Assembly (NCBI GenBank): GCA_964016885.1
Contig: OZ024742.1
Coordinates: forward strand, 19,592,001-19,656,000
Direction: 5' to 3'
From: Eledone cirrhosa
Lineage: Eukaryota
Length of the DNA stretch: 64,000 nucleotides
Shown here: positions 4,106 through 60,161 of the stretch, in pieces
Layout: each line of letters opens with the position of its first letter
How positions within the stretch are numbered: position 1 is the stretch's first letter
Made by a program: the position numbers and the translations under genes
Notes under the pieces: model-generated
Seen by the model: only the letters and a program-made list of their open reading frames with translations
The model's database searches: none
What the model was told of the DNA's origin: nothing

Positions 4106-4226
4106 TGTGTTCTGTTATTAATTCTGGCAATATTACGCAAATATGACCCTCCCCAAATATAACAATATCTGTTTCGACACACGATTTCATATAAAAAACC
4201 TCGCAAAACTAATTCATCGCCGCTAT

Positions 4227-5165
4227 ATATATATATATATATATATATATATATATATATATATATATATATATATATATATATATATATGTGTATATAT
4301 ATAATATATGTATATATATATATACATATATATATATATGTATATATGTATATATATATACATATTCACATATTCACCCTGCTAACACACACGCACACAT
4401 ATATATATATATATATGTATATATATATATACATATATATATATATATACATATATATATATATATATATATATATATATATATAATATATGTATATATA
4501 TATACGTATATATATATATATATACATATATATATATATGTATATATATACATATATATATATATACATATACATATACATATACATATACTTCTCTCTC
4601 TCTCTATATATATATACATGTATTATATATATATATATGTATATATATATATATATATATATATATATATATATATATATATATATATATATATATATAT
4701 ACATATATATATATATATATGTGTGCGTGTGTGTTAGCAGGGTGAATATGTGAATATGTATATATATATATATACGTATATATGTATATATATATACATA
4801 TATATATATATATATATATATATATATATATATATATATATATATATATATATATATATATACATATATATAAATATATATGTATATATATACATATATA
4901 TATATGTATATATATATATATATATGTATATATATATATGTATATATATACATATATATATATGTACATATATATATATATACACACACATATATATATA
5001 TTTGTACATATATATATATATATGCATATATATATATATATATATACACACACATACAAATATATATATATATATATATATATATATATATATATATATA
5101 TATATATATATATATATATATATATATATATATATACATATATATATATGTATATATATATATAT
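4227..5165. repeat. (TA)n tract with embedded inverted repeat
   Basis: About 900 bp of TA/CA. TATTCACATATTCACCCTGCTAACACACACGCACAC near 4363 recurs inverted near 4721. Confidence 0.95.
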
Positions 5166-5365
5166 AAACGGAAAAAATGAAACGAAATTTCATTTCTCAT
5201 TCTTAGTATGCACGTATACATACTTATATATATATATATATAATACATATATATATATATATATATATATATATATATATATTTGTGTGTGTGTGTGTGT
5301 GTATATATATATTTATATACATATTATATTATATTATAATTTATATTATAATGAATAGCAGTAGA

Positions 5366-5897
5366 GAGAACAACAACAACGACAACAACGACAACGGTAA
5401 CAACCGCAACAACAACAACTACAACAACATCACCAACAACAATAACAATCACAACAACAACATCACCAATAACAACAACAATCACAACAACAACAACAAC
5501 AACAATATCAAAATAACAATAACAGTAACAACAACAATAGAAATATTGTTGTACCACATAGTTTCCGTAATTCTTCAAATCTATTATAGGGGGCAGGTAT
5601 CTTACAACAACAATAACAATAGTAACAACAACAAAAACAACAACACCAACGATAACAACAAGAACAACGACAACGACGACGACAACAACAACAACAACAA
5701 CAACAACAACGATAACAACAAGAACAACGAGAACAACAACAGCAACAACAACGACAACAACAACAACAACACCAACAACAACGACAACAACAACTACAAC
5801 ACCAACAACAACAACACCAACAACATAAACGACAACAACAACAACAACAACAACAACAACAACAACAACAACAACAAGGGCAACAACAACAGTAACA
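5366..5897. repeat. (AAC)n microsatellite
   Basis: Degenerate AAC/GAC/AAT array. Confidence 0.95.
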
Positions 5898-56344: not shown

Positions 56345-59300
56345 TATTAAGGATATTATTTATAGTTATGTATATTTTAAACTATAAACAGGGAAGGTCA
56401 GTAATTTATTACTACCTTATTACCAGTAAGATAAATAGCTCAATGTAATAACATCAGTTGTTCTACAGAGCATTTATATAGAATTCACAAGAATCAAAGC
56501 TATGTTCAAAGCATTTATTCACTTACAATTGTTTCATCCAAACCTTGGCCTGCGGTCTTCGGAGCATTTTTCAATGTTTGTACATATAATTGACTTCCTA
56601 TCCAACGCAGGAGACATACAGATACATATATATATATATTGATGTACAGTGGAGCGACATATATTATATTATACTATATTTGTACAGCAATTCAAATTTA
56701 AAATCAAAATTAAAATACATGCGGCAGATAACACAGATAATGTAAGAGGATAGTTTGATAATCAGGTATGCGTTAGTCACACATGGAGCATGAAAGTGTG
56801 TCTCATTTATATACGATTATTGTGTGGCAAGGTGTTACATGTAATGCAAGCACTTTAAGCGGGTAAGCAAGAGTATTATGGTGGTTGTTGTTGTATGGTA
56901 TTTTTTGTATAGATCAAAAAAGTATGTGTGCAGAAAAAGAAAAAGAAAAAGAAAGTTATAGTTTTTGCATCCACCACCATTTTTACATTCAGAAAAGGAA
57001 GAAATAGTTTTTACATCCATCACATAAGTTACGATGATTCCGTATTGAATGTTTGATGCATTAAATTATTGTAGCGTATTGAGGCTCAGTGTTATTTAAT
57101 CCATATTTATAGAATAGGTTCTTTCTGCAGCGAGAATTTACAGTGGTTTATTACCCGGAAGTAGGTGTGCAATTAAGGGGAGTTAATGCGTAAGGGGAGG
57201 TAACTAGCTAATTCTCATAACTAAATTCATTGTTCTAATATACATTATATGGTGCCTCAATTGAGTCCCTTATATAAAAGGTTATATATTTATATCTAAA
57301 TTTCAATTTTAAATAGAGTCTACTCTATCATAATGTACTAAAGGTATCTATAGTAAGTTGATTACTCCTTATTATATAGTGCTACAATTGAATTTCCCAT
57401 ACAAAGTGCCATATCTTTATATCAAAGTTCACTGTAAATACAGTCTACTCTCAAAACATATCAGAGGACCTATTAAAATTTTGTCTACATAACCCCCGGT
57501 AAGTTATGGAGCAGCGTATGGCTGTTTGCATGACAAAATCAAATACATCTCTTGGGTAGACAAATACATCCCTCATTTACAATGTCATTAATCTATCCAT
57601 CAAGTTATACATGCATATATAATTCATATATAATTCATTGCACCACTCTGCATATACGTTAGACAGATCACTTATGTTAATAAATCAATCCTATGTATAT
57701 CTAATGTTATTACTCCATAAATTTAATTACAGATGCATATATAATTCACTGCCGTATCTAGTATTTAAAGTTTATATAGACTGTATTATATTTCTATCCC
57801 TATATAATTATAAGTAATTGAAAGTAATTATATTAAAGGTTGGTGTTTATGCGGATATTTCTAGGGTATAAAGTTATAGATAGAGAGAATGATTTGTGTC
57901 GAGGGAAGGGTGGATCAGAGAGTGTGGTGTAGTTGTGTAAGGCATGCCCTTGGGGTGTGGTGTTAGAAGCGGTGATGGGTTCAAGTCTGACATTGTTATA
58001 TATTGGGTTTAAAGTTTTGGAAGGAGTGCCGGGAACGGTGCTGGCACGACGCAAACACTTCCGATTTTTTTTATTAAGGAGGTTAAGGTTCGAAAAGATT
58101 ATAGTATGGGTCTCTAGTAGACAGAGGTTACAGAATTTATTAGGTGGTCTGTACGATGCCGCCTTACCTATCACTTCCCATTAAAGTGTATATGATCTAT
58201 TTCTAGTTTTCAGATAGTGTATGTAGCTAGATAGTGAAGTGGAGTTGGCTAGACTGTGTTTTTTGAAAGAATGGAGATGTGAATTGTATCTGGTTTTGAA
58301 GCAGTTCGAAGTAGAGCCTATATAGGTTTCAGAAGAGTTGCTAGTTCTGACCCTGCATGAGTAGATGATGTCCTTGATTAAGCAGTTTTTACCTAAAGGG
58401 CAGGTTCTATTAGATCTACAGTTACAATTATTTTGGATGATAACCTGTCGGTTATTATGTTGTGTAGAAGTCTGGTTGCTAGGTATTGCATTATGGCTAT
58501 GGGGGTTGTCGCTCCCAATGTTATTGATTTCATTAGTGTTATTACTATTATTACTATTGATATCAGGTTTTGCAGATATTACGTTGTTTTGAAAGTTTAC
58601 CCCCTGCTGTGTTTTAGTTTGTTGAAAGTAAGTATTAATCTTTCTTTTATTGCTACTAGCTATGTGGTATGCTATGTTAGGCGTGGTAGAGTAGGAGATT
58701 TTAAAGGTGTTTTTATTTATAAGACTATGGTACTTGTGGCCAGATGGGAAGTTTTTTATCCAGGAGTGAGAAGAAAGATTAGGTAGGTTGGTAGAGACGT
58801 TTAGATTGAAAGGGGGGTTGAAAATGTATTAGTTCTTCTTCTATTTTTGTTTTTTATATCTGTTGAGGTGTTTCTGTTTATGGTATTTTGGTGTCTTCTC
58901 TGGTGTGAGTTACGTTTGTTGCTACCCTTCGTATTAGTGTGTGTGTGGTTATTACTCTTATTACTATTTTTCCTCATGGATATATTGTGAGAAATAATGT
59001 TGTAACTATGTGTTTTTATAGGTAGGAACTCGATCTCATTATTATGGCCTGATCTAGCTAATGCCTGATTATAGTATTGTGAGTTTTTGCTAAATATGGT
59101 TTCGTCATAAGACAGATTAGAGATTCTATTGGATATTCCTTTAGAGATAGAGTTTAATGTTGATCTAGGGTGGTTAGACTTGGTATCTATGTAAATTAGT
59201 TTTTCGTTAGGTTTATGGAATGGTGTGTATATTTTAGAGTCTAGGTAAAGGGTGGTATCAAGGATGTTAACGTTTTTAGTGTTTTTGTCTATGGTGATAC

Positions 59301-59844
59301 TTAGGTTATAGTTTTTGAAAGTCTTATGCAATAGTTTCCTAGTTCTTTCTATATTAAATTTGTTATAGTCTATAAGGAGTAGTGCATCATCGCGGTACAA
59401 ACCACCGTTGAGGTATGGTAGGTCCTTATGGATTTCGTTTAGTAGGTATAGGCCCACCAAATCAGTGACCTGCGCCGAGTCACTAGATCCCATGGTTATG
59501 TCAAAGTTATTATGCGTATCTTTGCGGGTCCATAACTGATCTTCAAAAGTGATTACGGTTTTACGGGCCGCAAGTATGACATCAATCTGAGGTCTAGTCA
59601 GGTCACTATTGTTCATGGCCATAATTAGTGCTTTATTTAATAGGATAGGGGAAATAGAGGTGTAGTATGAATTGATATCAAACTGAATATTTTTTTTATT
59701 TTTGTTCTCTTTGATATCCACTGCGTTGGATAGGAAGTCAATTATATGTACAAACATTGAAAAATGCTCCGAAGACTCCAAGCCTAGGTTTGGATGAAAC
59801 AATTGTAAGTGAATAAATGCTTTGAACATAGCTTTGATTCTTGT
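56345..59844 (-). mobile_element. 5'-truncated decayed PLE with inverted terminal arm
   Basis: RT motifs (FDINSYYTSI, ITMGSSDSAQ, GGLYRDD), endonuclease motifs (IIYSCRV..YIGSTS..FKTRYNSH; CNLCLLE), ~1.3-kb 3' region. 59721-59844 is the inverse of 56486-56610. Confidence 0.88.
59766..59810 (+). ncRNA. Hammerhead-like fold with CCGAAGA core; other copy about 56521-56566 on minus
   Basis: GCT-CCGAAGA-C-TCCAAGCC-TA-GGTTTGGA-T-GAAA-CAATTG-TA-AGT. Confidence 0.65.
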
Positions 59845-59937
59845 GGAGAGAGAGAGAGAGAGAGAGAGAGAGAGAGAGAGAGAGAGAGAGAGAGAGAGAG
59901 AGAGAGAGAGAGAGAGAGAGAGAGAGAGAGAGAGAGA

Positions 59938-60161
59938 GTCTGCAGTGCTGAGACTAAGGAGATCACTAATTTTGTGAGTACTCGATACATGGGGAGATGT
60001 AGAGTGGGTATAGAGATATGTAAAATCCCGACCGCGGCGCCAAGCAGTTTCGGGTTGGCGCCGCGGTCGGGATTTTATATATCTCTATACCCACTCTACA
60101 CCAACCCATGTCTCGAGTACTCACAAAATTAGTGATCTCCTTAGTCTCACCACTGCAGACT
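59938..60161. mobile_element. Hairpin insertion, family T, flanked by (GA)n and CT-rich DNA
   Basis: ~105-bp arms. Distant relative of family A (TACCCACTCTAC, CGAGTACTC, GAAACTGCTTG). Confidence 0.8.

Follow-up and report, generated by a model that had tools for sequence, protein, structure and literature searches.

Head-to-head micro-insertions of Penelope-like elements in Eledone cirrhosa: paired outer ends and a possible twin-priming route

Described systems and the hairpin insertions

Penelope-like elements (PLEs) that encode an endonuclease (EN+ PLEs) have been described as inserting with an inverted, 5'-truncated copy at the 5' end, forming partial tandems, carrying a tail on one side and residing in (TA)n targets (PMC8557442, PMC3846280). 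The inverted 5' copy, the partial tandems, the tail at one end and the (TA)n target are shared by the insertions analysed here, in a 64,000-nucleotide (nt) stretch of the Eledone cirrhosa genome (‘the window’: contig OZ024742.1, positions 19,592,001 to 19,656,000, or G000:C3:19592001-19656000 in our indexing). In the published elements, the tail is 30–40 nt long and optional, whereas here it mostly spans 30–99 nt, is fixed within each family and comes with paired outer ends, and many of the present insertions consist of two arms only. These hairpin arms are arms of PLEs. Each family has two fixed outer ends, A (the end of the tail) and B (an internal TA), which are paired within an insertion, and it is likely that both cut DNA strands prime reverse transcription (RT) on one capped sense RNA, at A and at B, and that the two cDNAs are then end-joined.

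In vitro, the PAc Poseidon protein, a predicted dimer, nicks and extends both strands of its target and starts RT at two internal sites that bound the tail (PMC11167929); the extension of both strands and the two tail-bounding start sites recur here. However, the PAc start site lacks homology to the target, and the two strands do not differ in bulk; in the present insertions, the start sites are followed by TA, A and B ends are paired within each insertion, and the arms extend as far as a fixed 5' end. The inverted arm is not modelled in the accessible text of that paper. Given that the PAc target is not (TA)n, the self-complementarity of (TA)n, which an earlier reading of the window from its letters (the sequence-only reading) had taken as the cause of two-strand priming, is not needed. 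In Schistosoma, dual minimal hammerheads on opposite strands, 100–700 bp apart, have been ascribed to truncated PLEs (PMC4209133); they share this spacing and the U3-A8 core variant with the present hairpins but receive a one-sentence mention in the accessible text, without ends, joints or mechanism. Non-LTR (long terminal repeat) retrozymes (10.64898/2026.07.22.740005) are, like the present insertions, non-autonomous sequences with type I hammerheads derived from the pseudo-LTR (pLTR), but are described as direct tandem units with whole ribozymes, whereas the pairs here are inverted and mostly without a whole ribozyme. A retrozyme identity was rejected on the head-to-head arrangement and because the short arms of the commonest family, family 0, lack the 5' half of the ribozyme. 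Twin priming by L1 is occasional, employs random internal second sites and yields non-overlapping segments; here, in contrast, a fixed second site is used, and one stretch is copied into both arms. The likeness to L1 lies in a second strand that primes on the same RNA and in an extra 5' G (PMC11702581).

Head-to-head palindromes of PLEs were reported in PMC3846280, where antisense RNA self-priming was preferred and sense templates were left open, and the origin of the tandem and inverted PLE structures is named as an open problem in PMC8557442. No passage on hairpins or palindromes was found in the accessible text of a repeat annotation paper (PMC13282606). Our literature searches, which were made at listing level, with most subscription titles, the 2005–2006 PLE reviews and supplements outside their coverage (Fig. 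S1–S2 of PMC11167929 may bear on end pairing), found no A+B rule, no cap-like G in PLE arms and no PLE twin priming. The layout, the tail, the TA targeting and two-strand extension in vitro are already published; as far as the literature was searched, the A+B rule, the cap-like G and the coupling of the two arms through one RNA are new.

Inverted repeats were collected by self-comparison of the window and of a 1.844-Mb sample (three blocks and 138 scattered 10-kb tiles) of the 3.0-Gb genome, with arms of at least 30 nt, a spacer of at most 300 nt, one outer end at most 12 nt from a (TA)≥5 run and the other at most 200 nt. This search limited to TA-flanked intervals, of a kind that the sequence-only reading had proposed for the whole genome, retains 116 of the 288 local inverted repeats in the sample, compared with a mean of 5.4 (maximum 9) under random placement. 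The 116 hairpins group into 34 clusters, with 33 in family 0, and a crude extrapolation by contig class gives ~190,000 TA-bounded hairpins genome-wide, which, being short inverted repeats, might be filed by repeat annotation under miniature inverted-repeat transposable elements (MITEs) or short interspersed elements (SINEs). In the window, the fixed filter yields 16 TA-bounded inverted repeats, and mapping to family copies adds five (6913–7056, 22155–22289, 43854–43981, 17744–17903 and 23236–23367), for ~21 altogether, close to the ~20 initially counted; they fall into 10 clusters (11 if one is split) rather than into more than 12 unrelated families, and the family letters given to these were not reproduced.

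The arms read outward: orientation is the same within families in 1177 of 1245 best matches, hammerhead motifs point only outward (14 vs 0 among 84 hairpins with a loose matcher and 7 vs 0 among 116 with a strict one), and all informative families, as oriented by hammerheads and open reading frames (ORFs), have their 3' ends outside, as had been proposed. The tail is one-sided, with outer ends differing by at least 20 nt in 109 of the 116 sample hairpins. The offset is 30–99 nt in 82 of these (one arm had been said to be 30–100 nt longer), 100–179 nt in 26, 20–29 nt in one and below 10 nt in seven, so that near-symmetric ends (7/116) are rare and the symmetric terminal inverted repeats of MITEs are not the pattern here. 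Of 108 hairpins, 100 have a TA at most 4 nt away from the short end (site B) vs 58 at random positions, which upholds the claim that arms stop at an internal TA. It had gone unrecognised that what makes the arms unequal is the PLE tail already published, bounded by two RT start sites, and that the 5' ends of the short arms are fixed rather than random. The description of the insertions as ribozyme-bearing applies to a minority (strict motif in 7/116), given that the short arms of family 0 retain only the 3' half of the hammerhead. Arm-to-arm divergence has a median of 2.6%, and the arms are identical in 23 of the 116.

Fixed outer ends, joints and 5' stops

The intact parent of family 0, denoted L239, carries, in this order, the hammerhead (101–194), the 5' stop of the short arms, site B (206/207), site A (286/287) and the ATG (380). 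In a random sample of 45 two-armed family-0 copies, all are head to head; 40 pair A with B, five have one unclassified end, and none has two A or two B ends. Two search-derived sets, which are biased at the joint, contribute 52 further A+B copies, three with an unclassified end and one merged-cluster artefact, and the pattern is repeated in five other family references and in long elements; the counts of end combinations refer to the sample, not to the whole genome. Independent choice of the start sites would make about half of the products symmetric, which suggests that the two priming events are coupled. Any target-site duplication is unreadable inside (TA)n.

The two arms are truncated independently. 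Among the 40 A+B copies of family 0, the 5' end falls short by more than 8 nt on the A arm in 12 and on the B arm in four, and the arms end within 8 nt of each other in 24. Several A arms end inside the tail, without overlap with the B arm (6913–7056 in the window is close to this), and in some copies the B arm extends 55–69 nt beyond an A arm that stops in the tail or at B. The longer B arm could not arise by fold-back from an A cDNA, nor could the tail come from a B cDNA, which argues against fold-back from a single cDNA. The joints, as judged by automated microhomology calls (about half of 39 callable), show overlaps of 0–3 nt, insertions of 1–7 nt and some templated insertions of 13–47 nt. 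Short overlaps, small insertions and templated duplications are the pattern of end-joining, and the joints of the hairpins look like its product. Within a 17-nt stretch at site B, ~12 of 100 A arms end, but this apparent accumulation was not used as evidence, because the control pattern omitted the majority base.

On the 5' side, family-0 arms mostly end 50 to 68 nt before B. Long copies read TCATTTAGTC at this stop, which contains two overlapping initiator (Inr)-like motifs as called with the Inr consensus; the Inr-like A lies inside the pLTR, 58–62 nt before B (L239 position 149). An Inr in the Penelope promoter has been demonstrated (PMC2377424). The stop falls within stem II of the hammerhead, not at the cleavage site, and this is why the short arms hold the 3' half of the ribozyme only. 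The counts from listings, here and below, are by-eye readings of complete short lists or of the leading matches on contig C1, and the search-derived loci, biased by the junction letters of the query, were left out of the G frequencies and of joint recurrence. Among the first 100 of 17,169 listed family-0 arms, ~63 stop at the 5' site, 16 of these with a G at −59, and ~37 run on, none with this G. Genome-wide, 50 sites at which T is expected from the element as well as from the partner arm have G in 45 cases, A in three and C in two. The first 50 of 1929 tight joints have the G on at least one arm in 24 cases and on both arms in six. For family 6, the extra base is G in five cases, A in two and C in one; in family 4 (10,557 listed arms), 44 of the first 100 stop at TC/ATATG, and 10 of the 21 informative short arms carry a G. 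An abortive hairpin as the dominant product, as initially suggested, agrees with the ~63 of 100 arms in the main family but not with the 44 of 100 in the second one.

In L1 insertions, an extra G is the mark of a copied cap (PMC11702581), and by analogy the G in the hairpins would come from RT running off a capped sense RNA at its 5' end, so that hairpin ends would map likely PLE start sites from DNA alone. Raw restriction-site-associated DNA (RAD) reads of another study (P17; other samples, short and PCR-based) contain loose ends that pass into (TA)n, in the thousands and for either end of family 0, as well as opposite-strand joints starting at reference positions 710–713, where the Inr-like A is position 711. 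A pile of these reads ending at 718 was not used, as it lies at AATT and probably represents the restriction cut. Additionally, in a few P17 reads, sites B and A are joined on opposite strands almost without intervening sequence (joint 771–848), a tail-to-tail adjacency that was not seen in the assembly sample.

Template use and competing explanations

The proposed mechanism would begin with transcription from the Inr-like A inside the pLTR. A PLE dimer would bind one RNA around the tail and nick both strands of (TA)n; one strand would be primed at B and the other at A through 2–4 nt of TA pairing, the RT primed at A would displace the B cDNA, both cDNAs would run 5'-ward to the cap, and end-joining would link their 3' ends. 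The TA that follows both start sites probably merely aids pairing. Priming at the 5' pLTR of the mRNA would leave ~60 and 140 nt to copy, producing micro-hairpins, and priming at the downstream pLTR, where a tail is present in read-through RNA, would produce long arms and full elements; a long copy ending at B, with no tail at its 3' end, would give rise mostly to micro-hairpins. We consider two primers on the sense RNA very probable and the use of one RNA for both arms likely. We lean, by a small degree, toward the broader proposition that twin priming is the normal PLE route, with the dimer placed on one capped RNA at two programmed sites and the outcome, hairpin or full element, set by the pLTR that is gripped; the inverted pLTR, the tail and the ~190,000 micro-hairpins would then be one product class, here in at least two PLE clades. 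The sequence-only reading had already put forward the priming of both strands and the joining of the two cDNAs, and the independently cut arms, the possible presence of the cap-like G on both of them and the end-joining-like joints all fit this. If true, the double use of a capped sense template would explain the long-puzzling inverted repeats of PLEs; the genome-scale readout favours it over the antisense self-priming of PMC3846280, and it makes two exact predictions for the existing in vitro system, A+B pairing and arms from the same template.

Evidence for one RNA comes from the concordance of the arms. A diagnostic base is the same in both arms at 49 of 50 joints (~23 mixed joints expected), and subfamily calls agree in all 60 usable pairs (of 67). 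Where the partner extends at least 2 templated nt past −58, the G at −59 occurs at 2 of 65 sites, compared with 16 of 63 short arms overall (Fisher p 0.00025); such sites often show a G ahead of the −62 start instead, and the −58 and −62 starts are unmixed. Among the opposite-strand pairs listed, a long arm goes with a long one and a short arm with a short one in 16 of 16 cases for family 0 and in 30 of 31 for family 4 (22 of 23 without palindromic joins), and each arm is nearer to its partner than to other copies (3.0 vs 15.8 differences in 53 nt). The same subfamily and the same 5' end in both arms make one RNA the simplest cause. Different subfamilies in the two arms had been named as the sign of two templates, and the comparison gave the opposite result, pointing to one RNA used twice.

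Several observations weigh against this conclusion. Passage beyond site B by ~88 of 100 A arms needs efficient strand displacement, which for a PLE RT is only assumed. The start site and the cap are deduced from DNA alone, and an untemplated C added by RT at any RNA end would look like a copied cap; a second junction context gave 13 G, 13 C and 2 A, although 11 of the 13 C belong to subfamily b and may be of variant origin. At junction C1:4106825, the two arms differ, one with the G and one with the templated base. Palindromic joins, which define both arms together, make up 8 of the 13 short/short pairs in the set of 31, and approximately six short arms among the first 100 listed for family 0 have unlisted partners, so that mixed pairs may be hidden. 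Rare variants are common to both arms in three cases and confined to one arm in 68, and private markers are no proof of one molecule. The A+B rule is breached by a true B+B copy (L080:7927-8145) and a near-B+B copy (L016); inspection of the end-symmetry exceptions covered two of the seven near-symmetric repeats and one search locus, and the third exception inspected, L128, is likely a single A arm that a TA run inside it divides in two.

Finally, two RNAs from one locus with one start site could give the same concordance. An asymmetric dimer might hold one RNA per subunit, each strand priming on one of them, with the arms matching because both RNAs come from the active locus. The head-to-head geometry, the independent truncation and the G on both arms would all follow without strand displacement, and the ~88 of 100 A arms that pass B would pose no difficulty, but the A+B pairing would need a separate reason. 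Furthermore, a tandem locus offers both 5' and downstream sites, yet mixed pairs of a long and a short arm number 0 of 16 and 1 of 31 among those listed, and neither the −58 and −62 starts nor the subfamilies are mixed, which leaves two RNAs an unlikely source of the arms. Priming of a single strand followed by fold-back, in which either the cDNA end or an antisense RNA (PMC3846280) primes on itself, has the merits of predicting identical subfamilies in the two arms, of fitting some palindromic joints and of being the published proposal for head-to-head palindromes. Against it speak the A arms that end within the tail or at B although their B arms continue for another 55–69 nt, some without overlap, together with the extra G on B arms, or on both arms with 0–2 nt between them, and the location of this G, which lies on the sense 5' side whereas an antisense template would put it elsewhere. 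Fold-back is largely refuted for family 0 and, although it may hold for a minority of palindromic joints, is very improbable as the general route.

We give just as little credence to hairpin master copies or MITEs that move as units and owe the variety of their joints to later deletions at the palindrome centre. Some joints do recur, with one 8-nt palindrome accounting for 10 of the first 50 tight joints and for 10 of 30 in a biased set, but the asymmetric ends equal those of autonomous PLE copies, that is, of elements moved by RT, they stay unchanged while the arms range from tens of bases to kilobases, and they are near-symmetric in only 7 of 116 hairpins. Nor would master copies predict that an arm is closer to its partner than to other copies and concordant with it in subfamily, that the joints contain insertions and templated duplications, or that the G appears in many joint contexts and several families. 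Palindromic chimeras are a known artefact of assembly or of library fold-back, but as an account of these hairpins such an artefact is close to negligible in probability: the arms diverge (2.6% at the median; 23 of 116 identical), the ends are fixed by family, and opposite-strand joints and both TA ends are present in the raw reads of another study.

Parent elements and features of the window

L239 encodes a 719-amino acid (aa) ORF and has the pLTR twice, the second one ending at B in (TA)n. The minimum free energy fold of L239:98-200 is a type I hammerhead with the U3-A8 core, a predicted ribozyme whose fold is not unusually stable (z −0.64). The putative start site lies inside this hammerhead (L239:101-194); in that case, a whole ribozyme would exist only in the downstream pLTR of read-through RNA, and cleavage there would cut just upstream of B. 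The translation, read by eye, contains RWR, DKT, a CxCX5C linker, and CxxC and CxH around E/N. From these motifs and the (TA)n target, L239 is classified tentatively as a Hydra-type PLE, the RWK-like motif being present as RWR; the label Neptune was dropped, as the motifs fit the Hydra description. In this comparison by motifs, Hydra clade PLEs (PMC8557442) have in common with L239 the RWR, DKT, CxCX5C, CxxC and CxH motifs, the hammerhead, a length of ~3.1 kb and (TA)n, and micro-hairpins are not described in the accessible section on that clade.

The elements conform to the EN+ PLE description: a single ORF with RT plus a GIY-YIG domain at its C terminus, pLTRs in partial tandems with an inverted 5' copy, a type I hammerhead motif in the pLTR and a one-sided tail. 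Homologs of L239 carry PF01541, PF26215 and PF28514 (GIY-YIG-associated Pfam sets), and the window ORF matches RVT_1/GIY-YIG clusters at 0.97; direct Pfam scans of the PLE proteins were weak or empty, and PDB sequence searches with them gave nothing significant. The window element whose ORF starts with MTLPK has a CX4CxxC linker and by its motifs belongs to a group other than that of L239. The far end of its tandem stops at B, and its inverted arm, 4106–4223, stops at A. Positions 1–4105 together with 4 kb to the left contain two tandem PLE copies with an RT-EN protein identical over 804 aa, which indicates a very young insertion of ~7.8 kb. TA follows site A in the three long copies inspected. 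The inverted arms reported on the three long PLEs of the window are all real, but the one at 59721–59845 adjoins (GA)n, not (TA)n. The features of the window are as follows.

1–760, minus strand: pLTR and ORF start (MTLPK, ATG at 570) of the tandem PLE; the insertion extends left of the window, ending at site B in (TA)n
1061–4105, minus strand: 5'-truncated PLE copy with RT, CX4CxxC linker and GIY-YIG frame; Neptune/Nematis-type motifs
4106–4223, plus strand: inverted arm of the MTLPK element, ending at site A, flush with (TA)n
6913–7056: family 0; A arm (minus) 6913–7001, stopping 9 nt past site B; B arm (plus) 6999–7056, reaching −58; inverted repeat nearly nil
8183–8328: family 2 two-arm insertion
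8364–8865: family 1a; A arm (minus) 8364–8719, B arm (plus) 8720–8865; tail 40 nt
9187–9379: family 0; A arm (minus) 9187–9323, B arm (plus) 9325–9379
10208–10564: family 19 two-arm insertion; tail 48 nt
10583–11002: family 1a; B arm (minus), A arm (plus); tail 40 nt
11028–11354: family 3; A arm (minus), B arm (plus); tail 64 nt; outward hammerhead motif (loose matcher)
14879–15084: family 2; B arm (minus), A arm (plus); outward hammerhead motif (loose matcher)
15612–16098: family 10; A arm (minus), B arm (plus); tail 100 nt; complete type I hammerhead; 0 mismatches in 183 nt
17744–17903: family 1b two-arm insertion
22155–22289: family 0, subfamily c; B arm (minus) and an A arm cut near site B
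22440–22640: family 0; B arm (minus) to 22497, A arm (plus) from 22499; G at 22498 absent from the long element and the partner (cap-like G)
23236–23367: family 2; B-side arm (minus) and partial A arm (plus)
29182–29373: family 0, subfamily b; B arm (minus), A arm (plus) from 29237
32006–32203: family 0, subfamily c, two-arm insertion
32221–32940: family 5 (MTLPK-like); A arm (minus), B arm (plus); tail 60 nt
35812–36274: family 4; A arm (minus), B arm (plus); tail ~90 nt; outward hammerhead; templated duplications at the joint
36363–37550: long insertion; 113-nt A arm (minus) 36363–36475 and partial-tandem sense copy (plus) ending at site B
43854–43981: family 0, subfamily c; both arms cut at −25
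44030–44343: family 15 two-arm insertion; tail 171 nt
54392–54584: family 2; A arm (minus), B arm (plus); 0 mismatches in 62 nt
55651–56325: family 11 two-arm insertion
56344–59845, minus strand: long Hydra-type PLE; tail end in (TA)n at 56344; inverted arm (plus) 59721–59845 stops ~10 nt before site B, at a (GA)n run
59938–60160: hairpin in a (GA)n/CT-rich setting, not TA-bounded

Two window hairpins are without TA bounds on both sides, 59938–60160, in (GA)n, and 44535–44754. The settings of the hairpins at 59846–60220 and 44535–44754 are (GA)n/CT-rich or (ATT)n, and these may be families with other targets or later expansions. Two arrangements involve family 2: at L137:743-1250, a family-2 hairpin occurs twice in succession, and L184:6813-8700 is an inverted tandem array of family-2-like units. 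Read sets of two other organisms contain ~0.3 of the words of window 10208–11354, suggesting that related hairpin families may exist in other species. A DNA search with window 22500–22563, in which common words were skipped, gave no match. An Rfam scan at E ≤ 5 gave no hammerhead among the 150 listed of 369 matches, which are mostly of the miRNA type on simple repeats or hairpins, all below the gathering score.

A stem of the form ACTC...GAG[T/C], a few bases past site B, is present in 7 of 30 families (shuffled mean 0.6) but is equally frequent on the reverse strand and serves as a lead only; stem-bearing tails are those of families 0, 2, 4, 9 and others (for example, window 22568–22592), and the stem is a candidate protein-binding element between the two start sites. 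The PLE ORFs contain asparagine-rich low-complexity inserts that keep the frame (window 3467–4051 and 58480–58990); such in-frame inserts have been described for rotifer Penelopes (PMC3846280). At 4304–4815, 25429–25561 and 62069–62223, host-like flank is duplicated in inverted form around TA runs. The remaining repeats of the window include a SINE-like repeat with many copies (11855–12030, 26339–26479, 27765–27906, 29820–30000, 38680–39050, 40170–40350, 42760–42960 and 48020–48119), one copy of which sits inside a pLTR at about 36565–36650. Broken RT frames resembling those of long interspersed elements lie on the minus strand at 44949–47400, 51258–52050 and 62887–64000, and minisatellite arrays occupy 13180–13830 (unit ~21 nt), 26740–27660 (~56 nt) and 27900–28690 (~38 nt).

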